A stretch of 64,000 bases of DNA from Alphaproteobacteria bacterium (GTDB lineage Bacteria; Pseudomonadota; Alphaproteobacteria; Rs-D84), in assembly GCA_017443235.1 (NCBI GenBank), contig JAFSOV010000007.1, forward strand, positions 4,769 to 68,768, written 5' to 3'. Under the pieces are notes generated by a model. The model saw only the letters and a list, made by a program, of their open reading frames with translations, was not told where the DNA came from and ran no database searches. Positions within the stretch are counted from its first letter, which is position 1. Each line of letters opens with the position of its first letter. Made by a program: the position numbers and the translations under genes. Shown here piece after piece: positions 5,673 through 62,032 of the stretch.

Positions 5673-5710
5673 CGCCCGTCGCCCGTCCAGGGATTATTTC
5701 CCGGACGGGC
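5673..5710 (-). promoter_or_regulatory. GC-rich stem-loop in the rplL-rpoB spacer (possible attenuator)
   Basis: gcccgtcc (5681-5688) pairs with ggacgggc (5703-5710). Its position matches the known rplL-rpoB attenuator of E. coli, but no clean U-run follows on the minus strand. Confidence 0.3.
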
Positions 5711-5752
5711 ACGAACATTATTTTTGAACCATAACGGTTCGGGTTGGAATAA

Positions 5753-6118
5753 TTATTTCAATTCCACTTTTGCACCGGCTGCTTCGATGGTGGCCTTCAT
5801 TTTTTCGGCTTCATCTTTTGCAACGGCTTCTTTCACGGCCTTTGGTGCGGATTCAACCAACGCTTTGGCTTCACCCAATCCCAAACCTGTGATATCTTTG
5901 ACTGCCTTGATAACCGCCAATTTGTTTGCGCCAACATCGGTCAACACAACATCAAATTCGGTCTTTTCTTCGGCCGCAGCCGCCGCAGGACCCGCCGCAA
6001 CGGCAACCGCCGCAGCCGCGCTAACGCCCCATGTTTCTTCCAACGCCTTGGACAATTCGACTGCCTCCAAGACGGTCAATTTTGACAATTCTTCAACTAA
6101 TTTTTGAATGTCTGCCAT
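5753..6118 (-). CDS. rplL: 50S ribosomal protein L7/L12
   Basis: 121 aa with an Ala-rich hinge ([24 protein letters not shown]) and the C-terminal domain [12 protein letters not shown]. It is downstream of rplJ. Confidence 0.97.
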
Positions 6119-45984: not shown

Positions 45985-48066
45985 TCAATCAATTATTTTT
46001 ATAAAATCGCGTGCAACTTTTTTTATTCCGGTCTTATTGAATGCAACCGTCAAAATGTTTTCGTTTTCTTCAATAACAACACCGCGACCCATATCCGCGT
46101 GCGCGACCAATTTTCCAACCATTGTTGTGCGCATCGGTTTTATGCGCGGTTGATATGTTGCCGGGCGCGCGGCATATCGCGGCGACCGCCCGCCAAAGTC
46201 CAAATAACGCGCATCCATTTCACCAATAAAACGTGCCGGCGGATAAAATTGCCGTGAACCGAAAATAACACGTGACATAGTATTTGTAATTATCACACGC
46301 CGGCGCGCACGTGTAATTGCAACATATGCAAGACGGCGTTCTTCTTCCATACCGCCTTCTTTGATTGCTTTATCATTCGGGAAAATTCCATCTTCCCATG
46401 CCGGCAAAAATACAGTATCAAATTCCAAACCTTTGGCGGCGTGAATTGTCATAACACTTACCGCCTGGGAATCATTTGTAAATTCTGCATCATTTTCATC
46501 GGTTGTCATCAATGCGGCGTGTTCCAAAAATTCCGGCAAAGTATTATAATTTGCAATAACATTTGTTATCAATTCGCGAATATTTGATAAACGTTCTTCG
46601 GCATCTGCATCTTTCGATTCGGTCCAGTATTTCATATACCCAGATTCATTCAATAATTTTGTCACGGCGTCTTTTGGCGATACGGACGCCCAATCAAAAT
46701 CAAACGCAGATAAAAATTCTTTGGCGATTATTCCCTGTTTGCCACCAAACCCGACATTACGCAACCCCGACATCAGCGAATCGCCCGCCGCGTGCATCTT
46801 TGCAATGGCCGCCGGCCCAAACCCACGGCGTGGCCGCGTCATTGTGCGCACAAAAGACACGTCATCCGCCGGATGCACCAACAAACGTATGTATGCAATA
46901 ACATCACGAATTTCCATTCTATCATAGAACTTGGTCGTGCCGATTAAACGATACGGTATGCGCGATTCGGCAAATGTTTCTTCGAACCCGCGCGACAGCG
47001 AACCGGTGCGAATTAAAACCGCATAGTCGCCGTACCGCCCATTCGCATATCGCAAAATTGTATCTGCAATCAATTTAACTTCGTCAAAATTTGATGGCAC
47101 GGTTAAAACATAAACAGGTTCGCCAACATTTTTTTCATCGGCCGGCCGCAGGTCTTTGCCCAAACGTCCATCGTTATGCCGTATCAAAGAATTCGCCGCC
47201 CCCAGGATGTTTGCGGTACTGCGATAATTTGTCTCAAGCCGAATAATTTTCGCACCCGGAAAATTTTTTTCAAAATCCAAAATGTTTTTAATTTCTGCGC
47301 CACGCCAAGAATAAATAGATTGGTCATCATCACCGACACAGCATATATTCGGCGAATCCGTATCACGCGTCAACATTTTCAAAAATTGCATCTGGGCGGC
47401 GTTGGTATCTTGGAATTCATCAACCATAATATATTTGAATTGCCGTGCGTATTTTTCGCGCACATCGGGATTTTTTTCGAACAATTCCAACACCAATAAA
47501 ATAATATCACCAAAGTCAATTGCACCTTGACGCCGCAATTCGGCGTTATAATTATCCAAGATTTGTTTCGTCCGCGCACCAATATCCATATTTTCCACGC
47601 GTCCGCGGTCTTTGATATTTGAAATTTTTTCGACCCAATCGGTTGCATCAAATTCCTTGGAATCTGCGCCCATTGCCGCAAATACATTTTTCAAAACCGC
47701 GCGTTGGTCGTCTTCGCCAAAAATTATAAAGTCCGGTTTCAATTCGGTGTACATAACATTTGCGCGCAGTATTCGCAGACATATCGAATGAAACGTCCCA
47801 CACCACAGGTCGCGCGCATAAAACCCGGTATCGCCCGCCAACATAGCCGCAATTCTATTTTTCATTTCGTTCGCGGCTTTGTTGGTAAATGTCAATGCCA
47901 AAATTTGCCACGGGGCGGCCAAATTATTTGCCAATATATACGCGACACGCGTCACCAAAACGCAGGTTTTTCCGGTTCCCGCACCCGACAGCACCAAAAG
48001 TGGCCCTGCGGTCGTTTCAACCGCTTTTTTTTGTTCGGGGTTAAGATTTTCTAGCATTAAATTCAT
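45985..48066 (-). CDS. uvrD: ATP-dependent DNA helicase UvrD/PcrA/Rep family
   Basis: 693 aa containing LNPEQKKAV, Walker A GAGTGKT, DEFQDTN, and the TIHAAKGLEF and VAITRAR blocks. Confidence 0.9.
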   Translation of the reverse strand: MNLMLENLNPEQKKAVETTAGPLLVLSGAGTGKTCVLVTRVAYILANNLAAPWQILALTFTNKAANEMKNRIAAMLAGDTGFYARDLWCGTFHSICLRILRANVMYTELKPDFIIFGEDDQRAVLKNVFAAMGADSKEFDATDWVEKISNIKDRGRVENMDIGARTKQILDNYNAELRRQGAIDFGDIILLVLELFEKNPDVREKYARQFKYIMVDEFQDTNAAQMQFLKMLTRDTDSPNICCVGDDDQSIYSWRGAEIKNILDFEKNFPGAKIIRLETNYRSTANILGAANSLIRHNDGRLGKDLRPADEKNVGEPVYVLTVPSNFDEVKLIADTILRYANGRYGDYAVLIRTGSLSRGFEETFAESRIPYRLIGTTKFYDRMEIRDVIAYIRLLVHPADDVSFVRTMTRPRRGFGPAAIAKMHAAGDSLMSGLRNVGFGGKQGIIAKEFLSAFDFDWASVSPKDAVTKLLNESGYMKYWTESKDADAEERLSNIRELITNVIANYNTLPEFLEHAALMTTDENDAEFTNDSQAVSVMTIHAAKGLEFDTVFLPAWEDGIFPNDKAIKEGGMEEERRLAYVAITRARRRVIITNTMSRVIFGSRQFYPPARFIGEMDARYLDFGGRSPRYAARPATYQPRIKPMRTTMVGKLVAHADMGRGVVIEENENILTVAFNKTGIKKVARDFIKIID

Positions 48067-48111
48067 TATTTCATTATAATATCACAAAATTTGCTTTGGG
48101 AAAGGGTAAAA

Positions 48112-48795
48112 ATGACACGGGTAATTTGTTTTGATATCGAAACCACAGGATTTGAATACCTGCGTGGTGACCGATGCATTGAAATCGGTGCGGTCGAGGT
48201 GGTGGACGGTAAAATCACCGACAACACATTTCACGAATATATAAATCCCGAAGGCAAAATAATTCCACCCGAAACATATATGGTGCATAAAATTTCAAAT
48301 GCATTTTTGGATGACAAGCCCAAGATGTCTGTCGTTGCACCAAAATTTCTGGAATTTGTCGGCGATTCGCCAATTGTTGCGCATAACGGGTTGGACTTTG
48401 ACTTTCCGTTTGTAAATCACGAATTGGAAATGTTGGGGTTGCCACAAATTCCGCGCACGCAAATGCAGGACACTTTGGTTATCGCACGCAACCGGGTATT
48501 TGGTCCCAAAAGTTATACTTTGGATGCATTGGCAAAATGGTTTGGCGTGTCTTTGACCGCGCGTGCGGATGCGCACGGCGCATTGATAGACAGCGAAATT
48601 TTGGCCAAGGTTTATTTGGAATTGGAAAATACCGCCCCGGCACCGGAAATCGCGGATATTGTCGCCGAACAACATGCGGCATTTTTAAAGCACCCGAAAA
48701 TTGGTGGCGATTTTCCGTATCGACAATTCCCCGTGTCGGCCCAAGAAGAAAAAATTCATAATGAATTTATGGAAAAAATAAAAGTTAGTGGTTAG
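48112..48795 (+). CDS. dnaQ: DNA polymerase III subunit epsilon (3'-5' exonuclease)
   Basis: Exo I is FDIETTG, Exo II is AHNGLDFDFPF and Exo III is HGALIDSEILAKVY. The ATG at 48112 is preferred over the TTG at 48091. Confidence 0.92.
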   Translation: MTRVICFDIETTGFEYLRGDRCIEIGAVEVVDGKITDNTFHEYINPEGKIIPPETYMVHKISNAFLDDKPKMSVVAPKFLEFVGDSPIVAHNGLDFDFPFVNHELEMLGLPQIPRTQMQDTLVIARNRVFGPKSYTLDALAKWFGVSLTARADAHGALIDSEILAKVYLELENTAPAPEIADIVAEQHAAFLKHPKIGGDFPYRQFPVSAQEEKIHNEFMEKIKVSG

Positions 48796-49551: not shown

Positions 49552-50151
49552 ATGGCTGTAATTGGATATATTCGCGTTAGTTCTAATAAACAAACATGTG
49601 AACATCAACACTATGAAATTGAACGATTCGCACGACAAAACAGAATAAAAATAAATCGTTGGGTTGAAGAAACTATTTCGTCTAAAAAACCACTGCACAC
49701 GCGCAAACTGGGGAAATTACTAAATGAATTGCAACCCCAAGATATTTTAATTTCCTGCGAAATTTCACGATTGGGGCGATCACTGCTTGAGGTGATGCGA
49801 ATATTGGAAAATTGTTTGAGTAAAAATTGCCGTGTGTGGACGATAAAAGAAAACTATCGATTGGGCAACGATATTCAAAGCAAAGTTATGGCGTTCGCGT
49901 TCGGGTTGTCTGCGGAAATTGAACGCAACCTTATCAGTCAACGAACCAAGGCGTCTTTGGACAACCTGCGGGCACGCGGACAAAAACTGGGGCGACCATT
50001 GGCCGCGACATCAAAGAAACTGAAAATGGATAAAAACAAAATTATTGTTAGGCATATGTTGGACGCGGGACTGTCGAAATCACAAATTGCACAGAATTTC
50101 CAAATTCAAAGAATTACCCTGCGCCGATTTATGCGACGTATGGATTGGTAG
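49552..50151 (+). CDS. Small serine recombinase (resolvase/invertase family)
   Basis: 199 aa with the catalytic-Ser block VIGYIRVSSNKQ, plus ISRLGRS, ERNLISQRTKASLDNLRARGQKLGRP and a C-terminal HTH. Confidence 0.9.
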   Translation: MAVIGYIRVSSNKQTCEHQHYEIERFARQNRIKINRWVEETISSKKPLHTRKLGKLLNELQPQDILISCEISRLGRSLLEVMRILENCLSKNCRVWTIKENYRLGNDIQSKVMAFAFGLSAEIERNLISQRTKASLDNLRARGQKLGRPLAATSKKLKMDKNKIIVRHMLDAGLSKSQIAQNFQIQRITLRRFMRRMDW

Positions 50152-50162
50152 GCCGCATCGGT

Positions 50163-50414
50163 CTATCTTTCCGGGGTGGACGTGTCGTGTGATGGCATAA
50201 ATTTCACAAAATCACTCATCGTTGTACCTGTGGCGTTTAATACTTTGGCCAAACTGTACGTGGACGGCCAACGTGGTTGACCATATTTACTGAATCGTTT
50301 GCTTTTATTAAAAGTTGTTGCGTCCAGACCGGAAAACTTGGCCAAGCCCGAACAAGACATATTCTTTGACGCCGCCAATTTAACAATTGCGCGCCACAGT
50401 TCATCGTGGGTCAT
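50163..50414 (-). CDS. HTH DNA-binding protein, phage-repressor N-terminal-domain-like (83 aa), paralogue B
   Basis: About 60% identical by eye to the 49029..49283 product (MTHDELW..IV..A..KNMSCSGLAKFSGLDATTFNKSKR...G.P.WPSTYSLAKVLNA). It is in inverted orientation. Confidence 0.7.
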   Translation of the reverse strand: MTHDELWRAIVKLAASKNMSCSGLAKFSGLDATTFNKSKRFSKYGQPRWPSTYSLAKVLNATGTTMSDFVKFMPSHDTSTPER

Positions 50415-50617: not shown

Positions 50618-50692
50618 GCGGGCATAGTACAAGGGCTAGTACGCAAGCCTTCCAAGCTTGATGTGCGGGTTCGAGTCCCGCTGCCCGCACCA
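50618..50692 (+). tRNA. tRNA-Gly (anticodon UCC), CCA encoded
   Basis: GCGGGCATAGTACAAGGGCTAGTACGCAAGCCTTCCAAGCTTGATGTGCGGGTTCGAGTCCCGCTGCCCGCACCA gives a clean hand-folded cloverleaf with anticodon loop CTTCCAA. Confidence 0.93.
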
Positions 50693-50804: not shown

Positions 50805-50891
50805 GGGCGTGCGCCGGAGTTGGAGAGCCGGGGCAGACTGTAAATCTGTTGGCTTAAGCCTGAGGTGGTTCGAATCCACCCACTCCCACCA
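50805..50891 (+). tRNA. tRNA-Tyr (anticodon GUA), long variable arm, CCA encoded
   Basis: GGGCGTGCGCCGGAGTTGGAGAGCCGGGGCAGACTGTAAATCTGTTGGCTTAAGCCTGAGGTGGTTCGAATCCACCCACTCCCACCA has anticodon loop CTGTAAA and variable stem GGC/GCC. There is one C4:U69 mismatch in the acceptor stem. Confidence 0.85.
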
Positions 50892-51063: not shown

Positions 51064-51933
51064 TCATATAATAAGACGCATCGCGACATTCATATCAGAA
51101 ATCCAAGGTTCTTGATTGTTATGATACAATGATAAATTGCGATCCAACTCTAGTTGTGTACTTTTGTACACAGCTTGCAATTCAACGATGTTTTGACCTT
51201 CTTTGGGGGCTATAATCTGGTTTGATATATCTTGTAGTTTTTTTACCTCATCTGTACACCAAATATGAAAGTTTTTTGAGAATTGAGCTTTTACGTTTTG
51301 CAACAATAGACTGGTGTGAAAGGATGCATACTTGTAAGCGTCTAAAATAGAGCAGTTTCCATCGCCATCAACATCTTGATTGTTGTTTTCAATAAACCAG
51401 CGAGAAAAGAAATACAGAAATATGTTTGCACACCAGGAAACTTCACTAAATTCAGCACTTAATGATTCACAAAAATTACTTGCACCAATAACACATATTT
51501 TTGATGTTGTTGGCGTATTGAAGACACCCGCAAAACACTGACCCAATAACAATAGGCCGTCAGTTAGTCCTGGAATGTTGTTTATACAGCTTAATATTTT
51601 GTTAGGATTTAATGTTGCTGCACCATCTATGTTTCCGTGTGACGACACGACACATCCTAAAAATGGTATACCAGATAATTTACCCATTTCAGTTTTAAAT
51701 TGAGATATTTCATAGACTTTATCTGTTGATATGTTTTTTAGTGCTAAAACTGATTTCAACTGCTCTACGTTATCAACAAAGAAATAAAAATTAGAATCAT
51801 TACCAGATTGTTTGGCTTTTAACTTCTCAGCAAAATTTTGTATATCAAACAAAAACCTCGGCAGATCCCTATCCATTTCAGCAATAAACACCCATACAGA
51901 ACTTTGCGCTGAAGTTTGGAGAATCTGAACCAT
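51064..51933 (-). CDS. Caspase/legumain-like (clan CD, C13-like) cysteine peptidase homologue (289 aa)
   Basis: A hydrophobic strand precedes His-Gly (FLGCVVSSHG, His99). A second strand precedes Cys (GLLLLGQCFAG, Cys133). Then come a legumain-like IGASNFCESLSA block and DVDGDGNCSILDAYKYA (a DxDGDGxxSxxEAxxY-like motif). This is motif-level evidence only. Confidence 0.5.
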   Translation of the reverse strand: MVQILQTSAQSSVWVFIAEMDRDLPRFLFDIQNFAEKLKAKQSGNDSNFYFFVDNVEQLKSVLALKNISTDKVYEISQFKTEMGKLSGIPFLGCVVSSHGNIDGAATLNPNKILSCINNIPGLTDGLLLLGQCFAGVFNTPTTSKICVIGASNFCESLSAEFSEVSWCANIFLYFFSRWFIENNNQDVDGDGNCSILDAYKYASFHTSLLLQNVKAQFSKNFHIWCTDEVKKLQDISNQIIAPKEGQNIVELQAVYKSTQLELDRNLSLYHNNQEPWISDMNVAMRLII

Positions 51934-51935
51934 AA

Positions 51936-52178
51936 TTAATCCTTTTGGAGTATAACCAAATCAGATCTATCGGCATTCTCTGGCATTTTATCAAGTGGTG
52001 GTAAAATTAACTTTCCAGTTACGTTTATTCTGAAATACAGATCGCCAACCACCATTATATATTTTGTTCCTCTATCATCAAAACCATCCTGTTGTGAATA
52101 TAACGCAATATTTCCACTCATAATTTCATTTCTTATTTGTGGCGGAAGATCTACTAATACATCATACTTTAAAATCAT
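51936..52178 (-). CDS. Hypothetical small protein (80 aa), translationally coupled to the C13-like gene
   Basis: Its stop TAA lies 2 nt before the ATG of the downstream gene. It has its own AT-rich upstream region of ~160 bp. I recognised no motif. Confidence 0.55.
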   Translation of the reverse strand: MILKYDVLVDLPPQIRNEIMSGNIALYSQQDGFDDRGTKYIMVVGDLYFRINVTGKLILPPLDKMPENADRSDLVILQKD

Positions 52179-52338: not shown

Positions 52339-53928
52339 TTAAAGCATGTTTGGCAGATTAAACAACTTATCAACACTACATTGCAACTTGCCAGACATGA
52401 TGTCATTGATAGTATGCGGGTTCATATATGCAAGTTTCAGATGTCGGTATACACTGCTTTCCGAGACATTTTCTGCTCTTGCGATTGATTTATAATCACT
52501 ATTTTTTTCATATAATTCACGATATTTAAATGCACGTGCAAATGTACGAACAATTAAATGATTATTATCAGTAATACTGATAGCACCAGATTTGCCACAG
52601 TTATATTCATTGCTTTTGTTGTATTTACTAAGAATAAATAGCTGTTCAATTATTATGGTGTCACCATTCACAATGTAATCCATTTGATTGGTTGATTCAT
52701 TTATGAAATCATCACACATAAATTGTTTCAAATCATTACTTAATTTCAAATAAAACGTCAGTTTGTTGTCGGAATAAACTACTTTATCAACAATTGTTTT
52801 TATAAATTCTCGTTTCTGCGTATACGGCAAACTTTGTACATTTACACGTTTTAACATCAATGTTATATCCGGTGGTAATTTTTGCATGTCAGAATTCAAA
52901 AAATCGATGATGGTATTCATTGCAATTTCATCAACACTAAGTGACGGAATATAAAAACCAGGTTTTGAATAGTAATATTTTATAGGTTGTCCAGATTTTC
53001 GTGTTTGTTGATTTGTGAATTTAGTACCATCTATATCAAATAATTTTCCAGTCAGTAAATTTGGTGAACCAGCATAACGATTACCTTTATGATTACCATT
53101 TCTGTTCAATGCCATTTGAACACGATTGAACAAATCTTTTTCTATGATTGCCGCATGTTCACCCTTTACAGATGTTCCACCAGATTTACAGACCATATTC
53201 CCAATATAAACTTCATCACGCAATAAATTGTGCAACGTTTGTTGATAAAATTCTGCGCCACCACGCACAACACCTTTCTTGGTTGTCCATTGCTTGTTAT
53301 GGATATTGTTTTCACGTGCGAAGCGAACTAATTCAACCACAGATTGTAATTCCAGATATTTTTCAAATAAGATTTTTACCTGTTCTGCTTCGGATTTATT
53401 AATAATCAACTTTTTATTTATTATGTCATAACCAAGTCGCGGATTACCACCAACCCAAATGCCTTTGGCTTTTGATGCACGAATTTTATCACGCACACGT
53501 TCACTGGCAACCTCGCGTTCAAACTGAGCAAATGACAGCAACATGTTCAATGTCAATTTACCCATAGAATTTGATGTGTCAAATGACTGTGTTATGGATA
53601 CAAAATTCGCACCGTATTTCTCAAAATATTTCATCATATTATGAAAGTCCAGAATTGAACGTGACAACCGGTCGACCTTATAAACAACCACTGTGTTTAC
53701 CAAACCGTGTGCCATATCGTCCAACATTTGCTTTAACGCCGGACGTTCCATAGTCCCGCCAGATATTGCCGCATCACTGTATGTTTTATAATATTGCCAA
53801 CCGTTGAATGTTTGGGACGCAATATATGCTTTGCAAGATTCTTCTTGGTTTTGCAAAGAATTGAATTCCATATCTAAACCGTGTTCGGTTGATTTGCGAA
53901 CATATATGGCACATCTATTTATCGGCAT
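52339..53928 (-). CDS. Large serine recombinase (integrase)
   Basis: 529 aa with a resolvase-type N-domain (CAIYVRKSTE catalytic Ser, VYKVDRLSRS, LSFAQFERE), followed by a recombinase domain and a long C-terminal region. Confidence 0.9.
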   Translation of the reverse strand: MPINRCAIYVRKSTEHGLDMEFNSLQNQEESCKAYIASQTFNGWQYYKTYSDAAISGGTMERPALKQMLDDMAHGLVNTVVVYKVDRLSRSILDFHNMMKYFEKYGANFVSITQSFDTSNSMGKLTLNMLLSFAQFEREVASERVRDKIRASKAKGIWVGGNPRLGYDIINKKLIINKSEAEQVKILFEKYLELQSVVELVRFARENNIHNKQWTTKKGVVRGGAEFYQQTLHNLLRDEVYIGNMVCKSGGTSVKGEHAAIIEKDLFNRVQMALNRNGNHKGNRYAGSPNLLTGKLFDIDGTKFTNQQTRKSGQPIKYYYSKPGFYIPSLSVDEIAMNTIIDFLNSDMQKLPPDITLMLKRVNVQSLPYTQKREFIKTIVDKVVYSDNKLTFYLKLSNDLKQFMCDDFINESTNQMDYIVNGDTIIIEQLFILSKYNKSNEYNCGKSGAISITDNNHLIVRTFARAFKYRELYEKNSDYKSIARAENVSESSVYRHLKLAYMNPHTINDIMSGKLQCSVDKLFNLPNML

Positions 53929-54355
53929 TTTTCGTCCTTTTGGCTATTCCAAAGAAATCTGGTCCCGATATTTTTATGCCGGTTATATCCATCGCAACTG
54001 CTGACAAAGTTCGGTATCTTTTATCGTTATACGCGAACCCGTCGTCTGTAACGACAACATTGTGTTTAATGCCACGAAATGTCTTGGTTATGGTGCTACC
54101 GATGGTTAGGTTGTATTTATTTTTATGCACCTTATCCAAACAAGCATTGGGGTTATCCTTATATTTGCGAATTTTTACCATATATTTTGGTTCTATTCGC
54201 AGTTTTAATCGGTCGCATTGAATGTAATACCACAGGGCAAAATTCTGGCGTTTGAACGGGTATTGCGAATACTTTGCCCACAATCGCCCACGTTCTGCAA
54301 ATGACAGGCGTTTTAACTCTGCCAAACTCTGCGGTAAATCAGTTTCATACGACAT
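53915..54355 (-). CDS. DUF2924-family protein (recombinase-associated)
   Basis: 146 aa. The C-terminal block GSTITKTFRGIKHNVVVTDDGFAYNDKRYRTLSAVAMDITGIKISGPDFFGI matches my recollection of DUF2924. It overlaps the recombinase start by 14 nt, which is the typical pairing. Confidence 0.7.
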   Translation of the reverse strand: MSYETDLPQSLAELKRLSFAERGRLWAKYSQYPFKRQNFALWYYIQCDRLKLRIEPKYMVKIRKYKDNPNACLDKVHKNKYNLTIGSTITKTFRGIKHNVVVTDDGFAYNDKRYRTLSAVAMDITGIKISGPDFFGIAKRTKNADK

Positions 54356-54476
54356 ATAAACTCCTTTTAACGTCGTCCAATTACCGCTCTAAAGAAGCCG
54401 AAAGTCAAGTTATTTTAAGAAAATTTCTTGAATAAATTGTATATTTATGTAGTATGTACGTCACAAGAGGTAACAA

Positions 54477-55565
54477 ATGGCATCGTTTGAAGATATACAA
54501 AATAAATTAAATGAATTACGTAGTATTATAGGAGAGATAGAACAAGTTTGGCCTACAGATCAATTAGATCAAAAAGAAAAAGTCAACGTTCTTATGCGAT
54601 TTGCAACAGATAGATTACAAAGCGAATATGTACAATTGTTGCATGTAAATGAAATTAATAATATATTTAATGCAATAAACGCTATTATTGCGGATCTTAC
54701 TAATTACAAAAATACAAAACATCCAAATTATATTCGTAATGCCGTAGCTCAAATTAATAATTTAAGAGTACAACTGAACGCGATTCCAACAAGTAGCATA
54801 AACCAAATTTCGTTAAGAAAGTTAATTGCTGAATGTTCTAAAATGAAAGATGTAAACGCGAAAACAATAGACCAATTAAGACAACAGCAAGACGATTTAA
54901 AAAGTAGAGGTGATCGGATATTAAATCAGGCAATAAATTTATTATCAAATGTTACTACTGGGGTTTTATCGAAGGAATTTGAACTAAAACGTCAAACGGA
55001 AATAGGAGGTTTGCCACAGAATTTTAAACCACTTAAATGGCTAGGCGTAAAAAAATTGGGTGTTTATCAAAAAAACACTATTGGGCTATGGTTATTATTA
55101 TTAATTATGTGTTGCATAGTTATATTTGGGGGATATCTAATTGATTATATTGTTGTTTTGGACAAACCACAAACATCATTATGGATTTATGCTTTGATAA
55201 AATTTATAGTAAGATTATCCATATTGGGACCACTAATTTGGTTAGCTATTGTGCAAAACAAAAAGATGAATTTATCAAAAAAATTAGCTGAGGAATACTG
55301 GCATAAGGAAATTATAACAAAAACATTTGTTGGATTGTCTGATCAGATTGATAAAACAACAGAAGGAGAAACGTCAAAAAAATTAAGACTAAAATTATTA
55401 GAATTGACATTAGATACAATTGCGAAAGATCCTGCAGACTGTATAGGAAACCACAATGATGCAGACAACCCCATGCATAATATTATGAAAATATCAAATA
55501 AGGGCTTGGGTAAAGTGAATGATATATTAGATATAACTAAAAAGACAAAAGAAGTTTTAGAATAA
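54477..55565 (+). CDS. Hypothetical membrane protein: N-terminal helical/coiled-coil region, 2-3 TM helices, C-terminal helical domain (362 aa)
   Basis: The TM segments are IGLWLLLLIMCCIVIFGGYLIDYIVVL and LWIYALIKFIVRLSILGPLIWLAIV. It is the first gene of a co-directional, tightly spaced four-gene block. Confidence 0.6.
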   Translation: MASFEDIQNKLNELRSIIGEIEQVWPTDQLDQKEKVNVLMRFATDRLQSEYVQLLHVNEINNIFNAINAIIADLTNYKNTKHPNYIRNAVAQINNLRVQLNAIPTSSINQISLRKLIAECSKMKDVNAKTIDQLRQQQDDLKSRGDRILNQAINLLSNVTTGVLSKEFELKRQTEIGGLPQNFKPLKWLGVKKLGVYQKNTIGLWLLLLIMCCIVIFGGYLIDYIVVLDKPQTSLWIYALIKFIVRLSILGPLIWLAIVQNKKMNLSKKLAEEYWHKEIITKTFVGLSDQIDKTTEGETSKKLRLKLLELTLDTIAKDPADCIGNHNDADNPMHNIMKISNKGLGKVNDILDITKKTKEVLE

Positions 55566-55581
55566 ATTAATTAGGCTAATA

Positions 55582-55863
55582 ATGATAAAATCGTTTAATT
55601 GTCGTGAGACAGAAAAGATTTTCAACGGCAAGTGTTCTAAGGACTTTCCTGCAGATATTCAGTCTAGAGCATTTAAGAAATTAAGCATGATTAATGCGTC
55701 TGAAAAGGTGGAAGATTTACGTCTTCCGCCATCAAATCATCTTGAAAAGTTGTCAGGAGATCGTAAGGGGCAATGGAGTATTCGTATAAACGGTAAGTAT
55801 AGAATATGTTTTACTTGGACCGAGAAAGAAGCAAATAATGTGGAGATAGTAGAATATCATTAA
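55582..55863 (+). CDS. higB: HigB-type toxin (RelE/ParE superfamily, plasmid maintenance system killer)
   Basis: 93 aa containing IKSF....TEKIF.G......P.......A.KKL..I and LRLPPSNHLEKLSGDRKGQWSIRINGKYRICFTW, which is the classic HigB pattern. Confidence 0.85.
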   Translation: MIKSFNCRETEKIFNGKCSKDFPADIQSRAFKKLSMINASEKVEDLRLPPSNHLEKLSGDRKGQWSIRINGKYRICFTWTEKEANNVEIVEYH

Positions 55864-55870
55864 ATAATAC

Positions 55871-55899
55871 TTGACTTTTCTTATTATCTATTACATAAT
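55871..55899 (+). promoter_or_regulatory. Sigma70-like promoter candidate in front of higA
   Basis: ttgact (55871-55876), a 17-nt spacer, then cataat (55894-55899). Confidence 0.35.
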
Positions 55900-55923
55900 A
55901 CATAATAAAAGAATAGGTAAGCT

Positions 55924-56265
55924 ATGTCTAACTATATTGATATTGAACATGTTGGTACTATTTTAAAAGAAGAATTCATGGAACCTTTGGGGTTGTCCAT
56001 GAATGCTTTGGCGCGTGCAATAGACGTTCCTGCTAATTATATTCATGGAATAGTTCACGGTACGCGGGGTATATCTGCAATGTTAGATTTACGTTTAACT
56101 CATTATTTTGGATTGTCTCAAGGATATTTTCTGCGTATTCAGACACATTATGATATGGTGTTGGCTTCTCGTAATATAACAAGTAAAGAATTAGCGAAAA
56201 TTATACCTTTTAGACCATTAGACAGTCGTCCTGCTAACGATGATTTTAAACGGATAGCGATGTAA
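55924..56265 (+). CDS. higA: HigA-type antitoxin (XRE-family HTH)
   Basis: 113 aa containing ILKEEFMEPLGLSMNALARAIDVPANYIHGIVHGTRGISAMLDLRLTHYFGLSQGYFLRIQTHYD. It follows higB in the toxin-first order typical of HigBA. Confidence 0.85.
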   Translation: MSNYIDIEHVGTILKEEFMEPLGLSMNALARAIDVPANYIHGIVHGTRGISAMLDLRLTHYFGLSQGYFLRIQTHYDMVLASRNITSKELAKIIPFRPLDSRPANDDFKRIAM

Positions 56266-56320
56266 ATATTTCCTTCAAAAGTCTAATTGTATGATAATAT
56301 CCTCCTAAAAGGAGACGTTT

Positions 56321-57487
56321 ATGGATATATCTAATATTTATAATTTGTCAGAAGAACAACTTGTAAAATATCAAAACAATCCATTCCCAGATGATGAAAT
56401 TAGACCGGGTTTGAAGGGTTTTGCTAAAAAATTCAAAGAGGAAATATCCGTTTTGCCGACACCATATGTTATGGCTCTTGAAGGCGGTTATGGAACAGGT
56501 AAAACGTATTTTATTACAAGATTTTGTGAGTATTTGAAAAAAGTAAATTTTGATGGAGATGAATCTATTTTTGCTATTTATTTAAATTTGTGGGAAAGGG
56601 ATTATATAGAAAATCCGTTTCCTGTCATATATTCTCAAATAATATCCGCATTGGAACCTGGTCATGAATTACAAAAATCTATAAGAGATAACGCAGTAAA
56701 AATTACAAAGAATTTGTTAAAATTTGGTGCGAAGGCATTTGGTGGGTTAGATATAAGTGAATTGTTGCCAGATCCAGAACAAGAAAAAGCTGATTTGATA
56801 TCTTTTAAACAATCAATGCAACAAGTAATTGCGGAAAAAGGCACAAAAGTTGTTTTAGTCGTCGATGAGTTGGATAGATGCAAACCTGATTATGCGGTAA
56901 AAGCTCTTGAAACACTAAAACACTTTTTTGATATAGAGGGCTTATTTGTGATATTAACTACAAAACTTGATTTTATGAACAATATATGTGAGGCATATTA
57001 TGGTCATCCCCAGTGCAAGGTTAATATGGGCGAAGGTTATATACAAAAATTTGTTCAATCAACAAAGATTTTAAATCCAACATCTAAAGAGGACTATTGG
57101 TTTATAATAAACAGGATTTTGAATAAGGATACCCTACCGGTCAGAATGCCTAATTATGGACAAGCACTAGAAAGAGACAGCGATGAAAATTTATACGCGA
57201 TTAACGGTTTTCAAAATAATATGGCTGAACTGTTTTGTACAGCTAAATTTTCAATACGTAAAACGATTGATGTTTCCAAAGAATGTTTGAATATTATCAA
57301 AAAGTATAAAGGTAAGATATGGGAACGAATATATGCTGGCTTCCCTGAGTTTATATTGATCAGGTATTTAAAAGCAAAATCTTTGATTCCAGAAAATTTT
57401 CCAGATCCAAAAGTTGGTTGGGACTACAAAACAGACTCTTCAAGAGTAAATAATTTCATCGAGGAAACTTTAAAAACATTACTATAA
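56321..57487 (+). CDS. KAP-family P-loop NTPase (short, no obvious TM insert)
   Basis: 388 aa with Walker A LEGGYGTGKTYF and the Walker B/KAP block VLVVDELDRCKPDYAVKALETLKHFF. Confidence 0.8.
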   Translation: MDISNIYNLSEEQLVKYQNNPFPDDEIRPGLKGFAKKFKEEISVLPTPYVMALEGGYGTGKTYFITRFCEYLKKVNFDGDESIFAIYLNLWERDYIENPFPVIYSQIISALEPGHELQKSIRDNAVKITKNLLKFGAKAFGGLDISELLPDPEQEKADLISFKQSMQQVIAEKGTKVVLVVDELDRCKPDYAVKALETLKHFFDIEGLFVILTTKLDFMNNICEAYYGHPQCKVNMGEGYIQKFVQSTKILNPTSKEDYWFIINRILNKDTLPVRMPNYGQALERDSDENLYAINGFQNNMAELFCTAKFSIRKTIDVSKECLNIIKKYKGKIWERIYAGFPEFILIRYLKAKSLIPENFPDPKVGWDYKTDSSRVNNFIEETLKTLL

Positions 57488-58141
57488 TGTTCTGTCTTCG
57501 ATATTGGTACGTTGGTGTTGGCGTGATAACTCCCATAACGTTTTGCCATTGTACATAAAATCTTTTGCTCCGTCTGGCAACCCTTTAATTCCATTGTTCG
57601 GGTTCGTTTGATCGCGAAATCTTTTTGCGGCAATACTTAATGTTGAACTTTCGCCATTCAAAAAGAAAACTCTCCGCCAATCATTGCCGGTTTTTACCCT
57701 TAATTTTGGCTTTGATACAAATGTCAATATAGTTCCAACGGGAATATTTAACGATTTAAATGTGATAGTTTTACGTTGGTTTTTGATTGCTACTTTTTCT
57801 TCTGGTAAAAACGCATTTTTTATTGGAACTTCGACAGCGCTACCACTTGCAATATGGACAGATAATAAGTTAATTGCATCATCAACGCTCATTTTGAAGA
57901 ACTCACGATTTGGATTGTGTCGTAATTTTGTTAACCCCTTGTGAATCAATTTTTCTATATCTTTATAATTGTTCACGCAAATTGCGAATTTTGCTTCAAA
58001 TGGTTGTGGCATGTTTTCTCCGTGTGACAATTCTTTACGGCGTTTTTCAACATCTTTTGATGTACTGCCTTGGGTCACACCAATTTTCACCAGTTCTGGA
58101 AATAACTCATTCCACATTACATAAATAATTCCACGGTTCAT
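57482..58141 (-). CDS. T5orf172 / GIY-YIG-like domain protein (219 aa)
   Basis: The N-terminus GIIYVMWNELFPELVKIGVTQGS...RRKELS...PFE...NREFF has the T5orf172 (MUG113) pattern. The C-terminal ~100 aa are uncharacterised. It converges on and overlaps the KAP gene by 6 nt. Confidence 0.7.
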   Translation of the reverse strand: MNRGIIYVMWNELFPELVKIGVTQGSTSKDVEKRRKELSHGENMPQPFEAKFAICVNNYKDIEKLIHKGLTKLRHNPNREFFKMSVDDAINLLSVHIASGSAVEVPIKNAFLPEEKVAIKNQRKTITFKSLNIPVGTILTFVSKPKLRVKTGNDWRRVFFLNGESSTLSIAAKRFRDQTNPNNGIKGLPDGAKDFMYNGKTLWELSRQHQRTNIEDRTL

Positions 58142-58158
58142 TTGGTTGCTCCTATATA

Positions 58159-58656
58159 TTACCTTGCATATCTATTCTGGTATTTATTTGTATTATAAAT
58201 TCCTGTTAGACCGCGTGTTTGTGACACTGGCACTAAACTTAAATCATTGCCCCAACCACCACATTGCAGTTCCATAAACGTTCTTCTTCCAGAAATAATA
58301 TTCACATCATCACCAACTCTACTTTCTGTTGGTAGAGCAGCTCCTGCATAATAAACCGAACTTTTTGCGTTGCCTGATATATTATGATTACCAGGCGTTA
58401 AATTTACACAAAAGTACTCATTGCCTGTACGGATATCGCCGATTGTGCGTTCATAGTTATCAATAAAAGTGAATTTTAGTCCTTTATCACAAGTGTAAGC
58501 ATCGCCAACACGTGATATACATAATTGTCCCTGTCCGTAATTCATAGGTGGCAATTTTGTTGCCACAGCATGTGTTTCAGAAACAGACAATTCCTGTATT
58601 GATGTAACACAAGCAGCTAAACTGCAAACTAACCCCAAAATTATAAAATTTTTCAT
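58159..58656 (-). CDS. Lipoprotein (165 aa), possibly DUF2846-like
   Basis: The lipobox is LVCSLAAC. The pattern FIDNYERTIGDIRTGNEYFCVNLTPGNHNISG resembles DUF2846 (from memory, weak). Confidence 0.65.
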   Translation of the reverse strand: MKNFIILGLVCSLAACVTSIQELSVSETHAVATKLPPMNYGQGQLCISRVGDAYTCDKGLKFTFIDNYERTIGDIRTGNEYFCVNLTPGNHNISGNAKSSVYYAGAALPTESRVGDDVNIISGRRTFMELQCGGWGNDLSLVPVSQTRGLTGIYNTNKYQNRYAR

Positions 58657-58680
58657 CGCGCTCTCCTTTTTTTGGTATTA

Positions 58681-58710
58681 ATTAAAAACCGCTATCATCA
58701 AGAGAGCGGT
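58681..58710 (-). terminator. Rho-independent terminator downstream of terL
   Basis: The stem accgct/agcggt is followed by a T-run on the minus strand. Confidence 0.65.
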
Positions 58711-58898
58711 TGGAGGTTAGTTACTACCAAATGAATAGTGTGGCTTATTTGGCAAATGCCTTATTCACCGACCCTCCAACCATAAGGCTGCAGGGCTATT
58801 AACGTCAGCGCTGACGCATTTGGAGAGGTAACTACACCCCAACATCGGGATCCCCGACATCAGTCCTATTTTACAATAAACATGTTGTTTTATCAAGT

Positions 58899-60347
58899 TT
58901 ATACGATAAATAAGTGTGGGGTTGGTTGCGCAATTATTTTGGTGCAGTATAGAACACCCTGTGCAAAGGCATCGCATTGGTCTTTGAATGCGGAATTTGG
59001 GAACAGCAACAATTCTTTTTCAAAATTATCCCAAAAATGGTTGTGGATTGATGGAAATAATACCGTTCCACGATAAACATATGCTGATGCACCATTCATA
59101 CGCGCAACTTTGTCTTCGTCTGGATGAACGGCTTGAATATACGTGCTACGGATACCATTTTCTGGCAAAAATTGAATAAGTTGAGTACCCGACGAAGCAT
59201 CCTCTATAACAACTTTATGTTGTGCTCTTGGATATGCTGAACATAAATAATCAAATTTAGATTTTACCATATTTGCCAAGTGCGGAAATTCAAGTTTATC
59301 GCGATAAATGTCCAACAGATAAATATGTTTGTCTGCAGAAATTCCGAACGTTATGCATGCAGAATATGCGTTTGTCGAGCCTGTTTTTGATGCGGTGTCC
59401 CAAGATGTAATTATATGCGTAAAGTTTTCGGGTATTGCCGTATAATATTGCATCCATTCAGATTTGATTATGCAACCTTCCTGGGGCGCAGGTAATTGTT
59501 GATATTGTCCAGCGAACACCAATTCACCGACACTGTTTTTGATGCGCATAACGGTTTCAATGGATTCACGTTCCGGATGTAGTGGTGTCCCAATCGTTCG
59601 CTTAAAAACACGATTTGATTGTGTGAAGTGTATTTGTTCATCCGTGTCCGCAATAATCGGCAATCGCAGGAGTTGAAAATCATCACTATTTTCTAACAGG
59701 TGTCCAGTCAGGTCATCTTGATGCAATCGCTGCATAATTAATAAAATGCGACCGGTGTTTTTATCATTTAACCGCGAAAATAACGTTGTATGATACCAAT
59801 CATTCACTCGATTTCGTATAATTTCTGAATTTGCATCAACAGGTTTTATCGGGTCGTCAATAATTATCCATTCTGCACCACGTCCAGTTAAAACACCACC
59901 AACAGATGTCGCAAAACGTCCACCATGGACGGTTGTTTCAAAATCATCTTTGGCGAATTGTTGCTTGGAAATTCGTGTTTGTGGAAACACGTGTTTATAC
60001 CAATCTGTTGTCATAACCGTTCTGGTATCATTTGCGAATTTAGTTGCCAGGTCATCAGAATAACTTACACATATTATGTGTGAACGCGGATTGTGCCCCA
60101 GTATAAACGCTGATAAAGCAACCGAACAAATGATGGATTTCATATATCGTGGCGGTATATTGATAATCAGGCGGTTTTTATTGCCATTAATAACATTAAC
60201 GATATAATCGCAAACCAGGTCGATATATTCTCCGTCTATGTATCCGCCGCCACCAGATATTTCATTGAACACTTTAATAACGAACGATTTAAAATCTGTT
60301 CGTAATAACGAATAAAACACATCTAATTCAGTAATATTATTGTCCAT
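58899..60347 (-). CDS. Phage terminase large subunit-like protein
   Basis: 482 aa with an ATPase N-domain (LIINIPPRYMKSI Walker-A-like, IIIDDPIKP Walker B) and a nuclease C-domain. It is preceded by a DUF5681-type small gene, as in alphaproteobacterial prophages and GTA-like clusters. Confidence 0.75.
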   Translation of the reverse strand: MDNNITELDVFYSLLRTDFKSFVIKVFNEISGGGGYIDGEYIDLVCDYIVNVINGNKNRLIINIPPRYMKSIICSVALSAFILGHNPRSHIICVSYSDDLATKFANDTRTVMTTDWYKHVFPQTRISKQQFAKDDFETTVHGGRFATSVGGVLTGRGAEWIIIDDPIKPVDANSEIIRNRVNDWYHTTLFSRLNDKNTGRILLIMQRLHQDDLTGHLLENSDDFQLLRLPIIADTDEQIHFTQSNRVFKRTIGTPLHPERESIETVMRIKNSVGELVFAGQYQQLPAPQEGCIIKSEWMQYYTAIPENFTHIITSWDTASKTGSTNAYSACITFGISADKHIYLLDIYRDKLEFPHLANMVKSKFDYLCSAYPRAQHKVVIEDASSGTQLIQFLPENGIRSTYIQAVHPDEDKVARMNGASAYVYRGTVLFPSIHNHFWDNFEKELLLFPNSAFKDQCDAFAQGVLYCTKIIAQPTPHLFIV

Positions 60348-60711
60348 TGTGCGATTTGACGTATTGTTGCAATATTAGTTTGTCGTCGTGATTCAGGTGT
60401 TCGCGTGCCGCGGACATGGCTTCGTATTCCGCATCTGCGACATCGCTTAATTCCATTATCCACTTTGCAGAATTCAGGTCGCCTTGTAGAGCTTTGTTGG
60501 TTTGTTTTGCGATAATGCCTTCTTTGGTACTAATACGACGACTATTGCCATCCGGACTCGTCAAAGTTATTTTGCGGTTCATTTGCTCACGCACAATCGT
60601 ATTGCGATTACGAACACCACGTGGGCGACCACGTGGATTGCCCGATTGTCCCTTTTGATATTGGTGTTCTTTTGGCGGGACACAAAACCCGCATTTTTGT
60701 TCATTAGGCAT
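60337..60711 (-). CDS. DUF5681-family protein (putative small terminase-like)
   Basis: It contains PPKEHQYQKGQSGNPRGRPRG, the hallmark GNP.GRP.G block. I trimmed the start to MPNEQK. It overlaps the terL start. Confidence 0.65.
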   Translation of the reverse strand: MPNEQKCGFCVPPKEHQYQKGQSGNPRGRPRGVRNRNTIVREQMNRKITLTSPDGNSRRISTKEGIIAKQTNKALQGDLNSAKWIMELSDVADAEYEAMSAAREHLNHDDKLILQQYVKSHNGQ

Positions 60712-62032
60712 TTTGCACCTCCTTAGCTGCATGTTTTTCCACCAACAAATCCGTATATGTTTTACCAGTACGCAGATTTATCGCATCAATACCGAATGCC
60801 TCGTAAAAACGTTTTACACAGGTATCGACATATTTCGGTTCGTATTCAATTCCATAACAAATGCGTTTATGCCGTTGCGCCGCGATAAATGTGCTGCCAG
60901 ACCCCAAGAAACAATCCAAGACGGCATCGCCAATACTTGTTACGTCCAACATAATATCGCTTAACATCTCGAAACTTTTAACGGTTGGATGCATTTTCAA
61001 ATCATTGCGGTGCGGTCCATACGAATTACATCCATAGTAATGCCAAACATTACTGCGATTGCGTCCGTATTTGCCTAATTGAATATGGTCGGGAACCTTG
61101 CCATCTTTGTTCAAGAATACAGTGCATAACTCATGCTGACTTCGGTAAGGCGTTCCCATGCCAGCCTTGTTTTTAACCCACACGCACAGGTTGATATATC
61201 GTGCAAAATTTTGTTTGCAGGCGGTCAGCATAGGCATAACGTTTCGCCAATCTATGAAATTAAAAATCATGGCATTGTCATTGGCAAATTCTGAACAAAG
61301 CGCAAAGTTTTTACCAAGAAATTCCGTATATTCGGAATCTGACATTTCCCCGGCAGCCATTGCAAAGTCTGGATGTTTAACACTGCCGTTGCCAGACACA
61401 AATCCTTTGATTTTTATATTAAACGGCGGATCTTGCAAAACCAGATTTACCCGTTTGTTACCAAGCAGTTTCGCAAAAGTATCACGATCTGTGCTGTCGC
61501 CACAAATAATTCTGTGACCGCCGTCAAATTCCCAAATATCGTCAGGGACTGTGATTATCTCATCATCCGCCACATATGGCACCGCATCCAGTTTTTTGAC
61601 TTCGGCCTTTGTACGCGGTTCTGCCAAGATTTGATCGATTTCAATGTCATTAAATCCGGTAATTGTTATGTCTGAAACATCTTCCAGTTCGCATAATTCG
61701 CTGATTTCTATATTCAAAATATCCGCATTCCATCCGCCACCATTTTCAGATATTCGATTGTCGGCAATCCGCAACTTGCGTTTTTGGACATTGGTCAAAT
61801 GTCCAATACGTATCACAGGCACTTGTGGCAGATTTAATACCTTGGCTGCCTCAAATCGTCCGTGTCCGGCGATGATTTCACCATTTTCATCAATCAAGAT
61901 TGGATTCACAAAACCGAACTGATGAATGGAATCAGCAATTTGACTAATCTGGTCTGGACTGTGAATTTTTGCGTTATTTTTATAAGGTTTTAATTGTTCA
62001 ACGTTTACGGTTTCGATTTTTAATTCTGTCAT
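60704..62032 (-). CDS. ParB-like nuclease domain fused to a DNA (N6-adenine/N4-cytosine) methyltransferase
   Basis: The ParB-N block is LKPYKNNAKIHS...ILIDENGEIIAGHGRFEAAK. The catalytic motif is LVLQDPPFN (DPPF). The SAM motif is VLDCFLGSGSTFIAA, giving beta-class order. Confidence 0.85.
   Translation of the reverse strand: MTELKIETVNVEQLKPYKNNAKIHSPDQISQIADSIHQFGFVNPILIDENGEIIAGHGRFEAAKVLNLPQVPVIRIGHLTNVQKRKLRIADNRISENGGGWNADILNIEISELCELEDVSDITITGFNDIEIDQILAEPRTKAEVKKLDAVPYVADDEIITVPDDIWEFDGGHRIICGDSTDRDTFAKLLGNKRVNLVLQDPPFNIKIKGFVSGNGSVKHPDFAMAAGEMSDSEYTEFLGKNFALCSEFANDNAMIFNFIDWRNVMPMLTACKQNFARYINLCVWVKNKAGMGTPYRSQHELCTVFLNKDGKVPDHIQLGKYGRNRSNVWHYYGCNSYGPHRNDLKMHPTVKSFEMLSDIMLDVTSIGDAVLDCFLGSGSTFIAAQRHKRICYGIEYEPKYVDTCVKRFYEAFGIDAINLRTGKTYTDLLVEKHAAKEVQNA

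Follow-up and report, generated by a model that had tools for sequence, protein, structure and literature searches.

Introduction

HigB toxins cleave mRNA in the ribosomal A site, and the partner HigA antitoxins neutralise HigB and repress the operon at palindromic sites; the higBA locus of Rts1 has an internal higA promoter arrangement. HigBA loci stabilise replicons, one HigBAC variant triggers abortive infection, and toxin-antitoxin pairs commonly hitch-hike in defence islands (PMC11980606). A 2026 study showed that stand-alone KAP NTPases whose C-terminal regions are of unknown function confer phage protection that depends on Walker B, and that defence islands are marked by small serine recombinases (PMC13552941). 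Many KAP members, though not all, typically have an insert of transmembrane helices in the NTPase domain, as far as the work of Aravind et al. (2004) is relayed in that study (PMC13552941). The WO prophages of Wolbachia carry a large serine recombinase gene, a DUF2924 gene, accessory genes and TerL, and the slot after DUF2924 holds ankyrin-repeat genes (PMC11376236). The present report concerns a cassette of four genes, namely an open reading frame (ORF) of 362 amino acids (aa) called ORF362, higB, higA and a KAP NTPase gene, at positions 54477-57487 of a 64,000-nucleotide (nt) stretch from an Alphaproteobacteria bacterium (GTDB lineage Rs-D84; GenBank assembly GCA_017443235.1, contig JAFSOV010000007.1, positions 4,769 to 68,768 of the forward strand). 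This whole stretch is referred to below as the window.

A first-pass annotation of the window had left two readings of the cassette side by side, either independent neighbours or a system with KAP as sensor, HigBA as regulator and ORF362 as membrane effector. Our data indicate that the cassette is likely a mosaic made up of three or more independent modules, each of them mobile (ORF362, HigB-HigA and KAP, with a T5orf172 gene as a fourth), in the variable cargo slot of a prophage remnant. HigBA and KAP belong to known kinds, and ORF362 is the only unfamiliar part.

Organisation of the four-gene cassette

The first-pass annotation described four co-directional genes with gaps of 16, 60 and 55 nt, and these coordinates match the ORF list exactly. 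The features of the cassette, followed by those that border it, are as follows:

54477-55565, plus strand: ORF362 (362 aa), module 1, of an unannotated membrane protein family
55582-55863, plus strand: higB (93 aa), module 2, matching PF05015, phrog_3066 and 6f8s_B
55864-55923, plus strand: higB-higA spacer, with the promoter-like site 55871-55899 and the direct repeat ACATAATACATAATA
55924-56265, plus strand: higA (113 aa), module 2, matching TIGR02607 and helix-turn-helix (HTH)-XRE chains of the PDB
56285-56320, plus strand: KAP upstream segment, with the -10-like element TATGATAAT and an AGGAG ribosome-binding site
56321-57487, plus strand: KAP NTPase gene (388 aa), module 3, matching PF07693 and PDC-S20
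57482-58141, minus strand: T5orf172/MUG113 gene (GIY-YIG-like), module 4, matching PF10544 and PDC-S57
54413-54476, plus strand: left edge of the cargo slot and ORF362 upstream region, where homology to loci L021 and L019 ends
52339-54355, minus strand: large serine recombinase gene (Resolvase and Recombinase domains) and DUF2924 gene

The GC content is 30-34% over 51-58 kb, compared with approximately 42-49% in the rest of the window, which bears out the AT-rich island that had been noticed earlier. Homologues of all four cassette ORFs exist elsewhere, and the four are therefore regarded as real genes and not as chance ORFs.

Linkage among homologues and recombination at the gene junctions

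The members of a multi-gene system co-occur across diverged homologues, and such co-occurrence was not observed for the four genes of the cassette. A search of 5.8 billion proteins returned 16 homologues of ORF362 with 34-54% identity, and seven independent contexts besides the window were recovered:

L009: two EcoRI-type methylases and GmrSD upstream of the ORF362 homologue, Mrr downstream
L010: ORF362 homologue after Eco57I, ResIII and PHP genes
L011/L012: ORF362 homologue adjoining type I HsdM and HsdS
L013: ORF362 homologue after AIPR and PAP2
L014: ORF362 homologue close to a 1,334-aa ResIII-Eco57I enzyme
L015: serine recombinase, DUF2924, ORF362 homologue, a diverged T5orf172 gene adjoining it, small resolvase, methylase and ResIII
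L016: HsdM and a UvrD-like gene, ORF362 homologue, serine recombinase, DUF2924, Dam and an AAA_15 ATPase

TBLASTN with the HigB, HigA and KAP proteins of the window found none of them in these seven loci, and neither HigBA nor KAP stood beside an ORF362 homologue in any context outside the window (0 of 7). For KAP, 204 homologues were found, among them a tight group of approximately 388 aa at 47-100% identity. Seven KAP contexts besides the window were recovered, here with the identity of the KAP homologue:

L021/L022 (99.2%): serine recombinase, DUF2924, a 306-aa DUF5655 protein, ORFs of 64 aa and 86 aa, Trypsin_2, KAP, T5orf172, a 165-aa ORF and TerL
L023 (87%): a type IIG restriction-modification gene, then HigB-HigA-KAP
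L018 (73%): no recognisable neighbour
L024 (65%): short contig with a homologue of an 80-aa ORF of the window upstream
L019 (65%): serine recombinase, DUF2924, DpnII restriction-modification, AIPR, KAP, an OLD-family ATPase and a UvrD-like helicase (Gabija-like)
L020 (61%): serine recombinase, DUF2924, KAP and a 1,378-aa ATPase
L025 (57%): ResIII and methylase, KAP, Fic and a tyrosine integrase

ORF362 was absent beside the KAP homologues of all seven contexts, and HigBA was present in only one (L023, the closest diverged relative). The neighbourhoods of the ORF362 and KAP homologues thus favour the first of the two early readings, that of independent neighbours. The sensor/regulator/effector system had been staked by the first-pass annotation on linkage of these homologues in other genomes, and it did not survive the survey.

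The edges of the modules could be located by alignment. Homology of L023 to the window starts at 55577, within the 16-nt gap between ORF362 and higB, and the 42 nt ahead of this point are only 41% identical, like unrelated sequence; the upstream DNA in L023 is the type IIG restriction-modification gene. The HigB-HigA-KAP block of L023 has a fairly even nucleotide identity of 80-94%, segment by segment. In the sister strain L021, the KAP gene is 99.2% identical at the nucleotide level, and ORF362-HigBA is replaced by other genes. The L021 alignment drops to 37-44% left of 56285, which is 36 nt upstream of the KAP start codon, with 88.9% identity over 56285-56320, and the same breakpoint, 56285, recurs in contigs from four independent gut-metagenome runs. 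At the left edge of the cassette, L021 and L019 cease to align with the window at 54412 and 54422, respectively, approximately 55-65 nt upstream of ORF362, and the cargo slot therefore begins just beyond DUF2924. As judged from these alignments, the ORF362/higB and higA/KAP junctions are recombination breakpoints, and ORF362, HigBA and KAP were gained or lost separately within the slot. Such separate gain and loss is what leads us to regard them as independent neighbours in a cargo hot spot. The separateness of the modules, the breakpoints and the variability of the slot are all shown by sequence comparison.

Predicted properties of the encoded proteins

The identification of a HigBA pair by the first-pass annotation was upheld. 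HigB matches PF05015 with E 2e-19 over 82 of the 91 positions of the profile, and also phrog_3066, annotated as 'toxin of TA system' (E 1.8e-33). Among PDB chains it is matched best by 6f8s_B (E 8.7e-25), which carries the deposited name 'Putative Killer protein' and belongs to what we take to be the GraTA complex of Pseudomonas putida. HigA scores 81.7 bits with TIGR02607 (cut-off 47.7), and its PDB matches are HTH-XRE chains that include 6f8s_A, the partner of 6f8s_B, and 7csv_A/6jpi_A (E 1e-9 to 1e-11); its protein identity to the HigA of L023 is 98%. The features that define HigBA are both present, namely a RelE/BECR-fold toxin and an HTH-XRE antitoxin, here 60 nt downstream in the reversed order. 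On the strength of these matches the pair is classed as GraTA-like, and HigB as a RelE-fold toxin of the GraT/HigB type that is predicted to be a ribosome-dependent mRNA endonuclease.

The KAP protein, which had also been correctly named as a short P-loop NTPase of this family, scores 102 bits with PF07693 (cut-off 20, E 4.6e-29). It has a Walker A motif GGYGTGKT at residues 55-62 and a Walker B motif VVDELD at residues 180-185, and G55-T62 and D182/E183 are invariant across 28 homologues. No transmembrane segment was found, the maximum 19-residue Kyte-Doolittle hydropathy being 1.02 (threshold 1.6), and the model gives the insert at residues 115-173 the form of two amphipathic helices, unlike the transmembrane insert of many family members. 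The C-terminal region at approximately 256-388 (about 130 aa) is purely helical. The AlphaFold2 model (pLDDT 78) had the RADAR protein RdrA as its best Foldseek match (E 6.7e-7, query-normalised TM-score 0.39-0.49), followed by Cdc6/Orc1, and a profile search of PDB sequences returned nothing. The RdrA fold match suggests an oligomeric ring ATPase; in the light of the model, KAP probably forms such a ring, with the helical region 256-388 giving the output.

The PADLOC check proposed by the first-pass annotation was productive for KAP and returned no family for ORF362. KAP matches all four PADLOC PDC-S20 models (E 4.9e-42, 6.8e-35, 2.6e-25 and 1.5e-24), and the arrangement typical of PDC-S20, a lone KAP gene among restriction-modification, AIPR, Gabija-like and Fic genes, was found in L018-L021 and L025. 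A literature search on 'PDC-S20' gave no papers. Because of its Walker motifs, the lack of transmembrane segments, the RdrA-like model, the PDC-S20 matches and the 2026 study of KAP proteins, the window KAP is considered to be a single-gene defence protein; by analogy, it would be a minimal and soluble one.

Three other assignments of KAP were rejected. RADAR was dismissed on account of the length of 388 aa, the lack of an RdrB-like gene nearby (the neighbours are HigA and T5orf172) and the lack of a RADAR model among the PADLOC hits. For Qat, NF041923 scored 32.8 bits against a cut-off of 600 over approximately 55 residues, and no QatB, QatC or QatD was seen among the ten ORFs scanned. Membership of Tmn was rejected since there are no transmembrane helices.

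ORF362 has no match to a Pfam, PADLOC or NCBIfam family, and matches phrog_34659, of unknown function (E 5.4e-6). It had been described as a helical protein with two or three transmembrane helices; the helical character and the membrane hairpin were confirmed, and the number of transmembrane helices is two, not three. Two hydrophobic segments at residues 198-230 and 235-261 form this hairpin according to the hydropathy profile. In the AlphaFold2 model (mean pLDDT 68, with residues 1-100 at 76-89 per ten-residue block), the N-terminal half is all-helical and consists of a bundle at approximately 1-100 and a single long helix at 110-176, after which the hairpin follows. From the basic residues at the flanks of the hairpin on its cytoplasmic side, both termini are placed in the cytoplasm.

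In the alignment of the 16 homologues, the C-terminal domain carries the invariant NKKMNLSKKLAEEYWHKEI, corresponding to N261-I279, directly past the second transmembrane helix. Additional invariant residues are F284, G286, Q290, L303, R304, P319-I323 (PADCI), D330 and P332. The protein can be summarised by the invariant NKKMNLSKKLAEEYWHKE together with the helical N-terminus and the two-helix membrane hairpin. The family consensus of the hairpin and juxtamembrane motif, W..NKKxNLSKxLxEEYxHK...G...P...D.P, is almost invariant.

Structure searches with the ORF362 model against the PDB and BFVD returned nothing at E<=0.001. The top sub-threshold Foldseek matches were helical bundles, alpha-pore-forming toxins and tape-measure proteins, with a query-normalised TM-score of approximately 0.15, and a profile search of the PDB gave nothing below E 0.025. 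Homology to pore-forming toxins is not claimed, given that neither kind of search had a significant match. Membership of the SLATT/2TM effectors was likewise rejected, as no Pfam family was found at E<=0.01 for ORF362 and 10 superfamily members and the Foldseek search was null.

A profile search of 1.84 billion representative proteins showed that ORF362 is part of a larger superfamily, with 1,175 clusters (defined at 50% identity) at E<=1e-3 and 384 at E<=1e-10, which spans Alphaproteobacteria, Bacteroidota and other groups. Most clusters are of 450-500 aa and match in the long helix, the hairpin and the C-terminal core; their N-terminal coiled coils differ and are longer. None of the ten superfamily members tested had a Pfam family above cut-off. 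PADLOC and NCBIfam scans of 45 members gave only matches to JetC, LmuB, SMC, Rad50 and ZorA, which are attributed to coiled-coil composition and not to homology because these families have long coiled coils.

One distant member lies in Chryseobacterium sp. 6424 (L026; CP023540.1, 4588-15590), where a type I restriction-modification operon is split between hsdS and hsdR by six genes that include the superfamily member and a DUF3644 gene. DUF6088 and AbiEii genes are located just downstream of hsdR, outside the interruption. This locus exemplifies defence genes nested in a restriction-modification locus on a mobilisable element. No conserved partner gene of the nucleotide-sensing or signal-generating kind was seen beside the ORF362 homologues examined. 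Profile scans of 2.9 million viral contigs with KAP and ORF362 found no relatives of either, and the idea that the two are common on phages was dropped after these scans; BLASTN of 54300-57600 against 50,697 phage records gave no match.

Signals for expression

A promoter for higA had been proposed at 55871-55899. The scan does return a promoter-like site there (TTGACT-17-CATAAT, 10 of 12 positions), but such sites are not enriched in the region, where 15 were found and 24 were expected from shuffled sequences. The sole support for this site is its conservation in L023: the higB-higA spacer is 93.3% identical between the two loci, and in the 86-nt alignment positions 3-58, which span the site, are identical. 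The spacer at 55864-55923 is thus, from its sequence, a probable internal higA promoter or operator.

Upstream of ORF362, reading by eye gave an AAGAGG ribosome-binding site at 54465-54470 and a weak promoter-like TTGAAT-16-TAGTAT at 54428-54455 that scores 8 of 12, below the scan threshold. The higB gene of L023 is preceded by TTGATA-17-TACACT and by the palindrome AATACT-N12-AGTATT, which is absent in the window. Since the 3' end of ORF362 replaces this L023-type upstream segment, higB is probably transcribed by read-through from ORF362. For KAP, the segment 56285-56320 contains the -10-like element and has its AGGAG within a CTCCT...AGGAG inverted repeat. This segment travels with KAP in L021 despite the replaced upstream genes, and the aligned upstream regions of seven KAP homologues have a common TTGAA-N17-TAnAAT-like pattern. 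A terminator scan of the region found no plus-strand terminator-like site between the four genes. As for RNA, one metatranscriptome contained a single 147-nt contig, which lies inside ORF362.

The surrounding element

Directly upstream of the cassette are the large serine recombinase gene (52339-53928, minus strand) and the DUF2924 gene (53915-54355, minus strand). Past the recombinase there are ORFs of 80 aa and 289 aa without a family match, and then tRNA-Tyr (50805-50891) and tRNA-Gly (50618-50692). On the other side, the T5orf172/MUG113 gene (PF10544, E 3.6e-13; PADLOC PDC-S57, E 5.6e-41) converges on KAP with a 6-nt overlap of the 3' ends, and stays beside KAP in L021. It is followed by a 165-aa ORF, the gene for the large terminase subunit TerL (58899-60347; phrog_38, E 4.9e-90), DUF5681 and a ParB-methyltransferase. 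In longer metagenome contigs, the next Pfam-matched genes are HxlR and cupin genes, which resemble ordinary host genes. The presence of the recombinase, DUF2924, TerL, DUF5681 and ParB-methyltransferase genes around the cassette indicates a prophage remnant of approximately 12 kb.

The pair formed by the serine recombinase and DUF2924 also flanks ORF362 or KAP homologues with differing cargo in L015, L016, L019, L020 and L021. The cargo in the slot of these related elements includes restriction-modification, AIPR, Gabija-like, type III restriction-modification and Trypsin_2 genes, as well as others. The exact locus of the window was found in 23 metagenome contigs from runs labelled gut metagenome, partial holders include bovine and sheep gut, and the closest genome-derived relatives are metagenome-assembled genomes of uncultured Alphaproteobacteria. 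A conserved pair of KAP and T5orf172 was considered, in view of their convergent overlap and their joint presence in L021, and was rejected; T5orf172 is absent beside KAP in L018, L019, L020 and L025.

Several other features of the element and its relatives were recorded. A small serine recombinase of the Hin/resolvase type, 197-199 aa in length, recurs in the window (49552-50151), L015 (12213-12806) and L020 (11830-12423), and the copy in the window has beside it, within 49552-50414, a gene for an 83-aa HTH protein that is read from the other strand. Its recurrence fits the idea that such enzymes mark defence islands (PMC13552941). The 165-aa ORF (58159-58656, minus strand) has a lipoprotein-like signal peptide MKNFIILGLVCSLAAC, a hydrophobic N-terminus and no family match; its counterpart in L021, between T5orf172 and TerL, has 87% protein identity. 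At 51064-52178 on the minus strand, the 289-aa ORF, preceded by the 80-aa ORF, contains SSHGNIDG and GQCFAG, which by eye are like a caspase-type His/Cys dyad, and it has no match in Pfam, PADLOC, NCBIfam or PHROG. The homologue of the 80-aa ORF in L024 adjoins the KAP homologue.

In place of ORF362-HigBA, L021 has at 3521-5920 a 306-aa DUF5655/HSDR_N-like protein, ORFs of 64 aa and 86 aa, and a 284-aa Trypsin_2 protease. A pair of genes for products of 306 aa and 64 aa is also located upstream of a type IIG gene on the P0018 contig, the likeness being one of product lengths only, and this pair may be another mobile module. Farther away in the window, at 40716-45980 on the plus strand, four tightly coupled ORFs of 430, 410, 479 and 435 aa (38-40% GC) are adjacent or overlap by 4 nt near 42005, 43237 and 44673, and have no Pfam family above cut-off. 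Next come a UvrD helicase gene in convergent orientation (45985-48066) and then an ORF at 48091-48795; in contigs of the same locus, the gene at the latter position has RNase_T/RNase_H_2 matches. The four ORFs could be another uncharacterised operon, possibly for defence.

Discussion

The mosaic reading has to be weighed against two readings in which genes of the cassette work together. It is very improbable that all four belong to a single defence system, with infection sensed by KAP, the signal regulated or amplified by HigBA and the membrane effector supplied by ORF362. The close, co-directional spacing without an intervening plus-strand terminator-like site would suit such a system, as would the identical arrangement in 23 metagenome contigs, though these are of the same strain or element. 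However, outside the window ORF362 and KAP share none of the seven contexts of either family and HigBA none of those of ORF362, the sister strain has its 99.2%-identical KAP gene without ORF362 and HigBA, and each family is found alone beside unrelated defence genes. A three-gene unit of HigB, HigA and KAP, with HigA controlling KAP or the toxin-antitoxin pair guarding it and with ORF362 unrelated, has a better but still small chance. These genes are together in two upstream contexts in a block of fairly uniform identity, yet HigBA is absent in six of the eight KAP contexts, and the nearly identical KAP gene of L021 keeps its promoter-like segment with the break only 36 nt from the start codon. 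The two linked cases are close relatives, and their linkage may therefore represent a single inherited event. Hitch-hiking of toxin-antitoxin pairs in defence islands is common (PMC11980606).

Some of our observations weigh against the mosaic reading or against the functions that go with it. The number of independent contexts is small, with eight per family including the window. The 60-nt and 55-nt spacings of HigB-HigA-KAP are identical in the window and L023, and because of this a short-range functional link between HigBA and KAP is possible. The four genes may be transcribed together in this strain, as no plus-strand terminator-like site lies between any of them. Both PADLOC systems matched here, PDC-S20 and PDC-S57, have the status of candidates and are not validated. 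Finally, two of the three distant ORF362-superfamily members examined are located in housekeeping neighbourhoods: the L017 member lies between ORFs that resemble, by eye, a class I aminoacyl-tRNA synthetase and signal peptidase II, and the L027 member lies among metabolic genes. These two neighbourhoods make a defence role for the whole superfamily uncertain.

The same two members favour the view that ORF362 is not a defence gene at all, but a membrane-associated protein of general use, in membrane organisation or envelope stress for example, or else an accessory of prophage exclusion or lysis, which happens to travel on mobile DNA. The lack of a PADLOC match is in agreement with this, and the weak match to phrog_34659 may point to relatives carried by phages. 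On the other hand, restriction-modification or defence genes adjoin ORF362 or its homologue in each of the eight close-family contexts and also in Chryseobacterium, and the 2.9 million viral contigs yielded no relative. We consider this non-defence view unlikely, although it is by no means negligible. A defence role for ORF362 falls somewhat short of an even chance in our estimation. From the layout of the protein and its neighbours, ORF362 is best read as a membrane protein that works by itself, as effector or sensor, in abortive infection or exclusion. A broader proposal is made tentatively: ORF362 may found an unrecognised, widespread family of stand-alone membrane-anchored antiphage proteins in which a variable coiled-coil sensor is joined to a near-invariant motif that would disrupt the membrane or exclude phage DNA on infection.

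If the mosaic reading is followed, each module would act for itself, in a manner drawn here from knowledge of the families. HigB would cleave mRNA on the ribosome, and HigA would neutralise HigB and repress transcription; by analogy, the pair most likely stabilises the island or adds an abortive-infection layer. KAP would be a single-gene, ATP-dependent antiphage protein of the PDC-S20 type, with a probable RdrA-like ring and a helical C-terminal output. ORF362 would work alone in the inner membrane, its two ends facing the cytoplasm: the N-terminal bundle and coiled coil would sense or hold a partner, and the conserved hairpin and juxtamembrane domain would have the membrane as their target, so that the protein would most likely be an effector of abortive infection or exclusion. 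The higB gene would have lost the L023-type promoter and palindrome and would probably be read through from ORF362, with higA and KAP having promoter-like signals of their own. The result would be transcriptional adjacency without functional coupling.

This reading prevents a neat set of four genes from entering the catalogues as a new defence system of several components, as tight spacing and co-orientation here would reflect the shuffling of cargo beside a recombinase and not a common function. The interest that remains lies in the ORF362 family, the delimited cargo slot and the minimal soluble KAP variant. The unannotated ORF362 family, with its unusually invariant motif and its location near restriction-modification systems, is a cheap single-gene candidate for phage challenge. 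The short soluble KAP is a minimal example of a recently validated class and offers few parts to dissect. Defence genes can also be sought in the well-delimited variable slot that follows the serine recombinase/DUF2924 pair in the WO-like elements of gut alphaproteobacteria.

In comparison with known systems, ORF362 is like the SLATT-type and other 2TM defence effectors in its two-helix hairpin, cytoplasmic ends, conserved juxtamembrane helix and defence-island setting. This likeness concerns a possible mode of action, and ORF362 is not a SLATT member on present evidence. The HigBA pair has in common with Rts1 HigBA and GraTA the toxin-first order, the HigB-like RelE fold, the HTH-XRE HigA and the promoter-like site before higA. 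It differs from them in that higB is only 16 nt from ORF362 and is without the promoter and palindrome found upstream in L023; in addition, most toxin-antitoxin operons have a shorter spacer than the 60 nt between higB and higA here.

The window KAP shares the NTPase domain, intact Walker A and B motifs and a C-terminal region with the PDC-S20 proteins and with the EF_KAP and gut-metagenome KAP proteins (PMC13552941), and all are encoded by lone genes of defence islands with serine recombinases close by. The window protein, with 388 aa, falls short of the 446-464 positions of the PDC-S20 models, the best of which matches in two stretches, and it has no transmembrane helices, in contrast to EF_KAP, which is modelled with two (PMC13552941). 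RdrA is its best structural match, but the solved RdrA chains have approximately 780-850 residues, roughly twice the length of the window KAP, and RdrA has the adenosine deaminase RdrB as its partner.

The element as a whole can be compared with phage WO. It differs in being a remnant of approximately 12 kb, with its phage modules reduced to TerL, DUF5681 and the ParB-methyltransferase, and in having antiphage and toxin-antitoxin genes as cargo in a free-living gut alphaproteobacterium. The likeness rests on gene order: the anchor genes at 52339-62032 of the window have the same order as in WO, the cargo comes directly after DUF2924 in both, and the hosts of WO are alphaproteobacteria as well.

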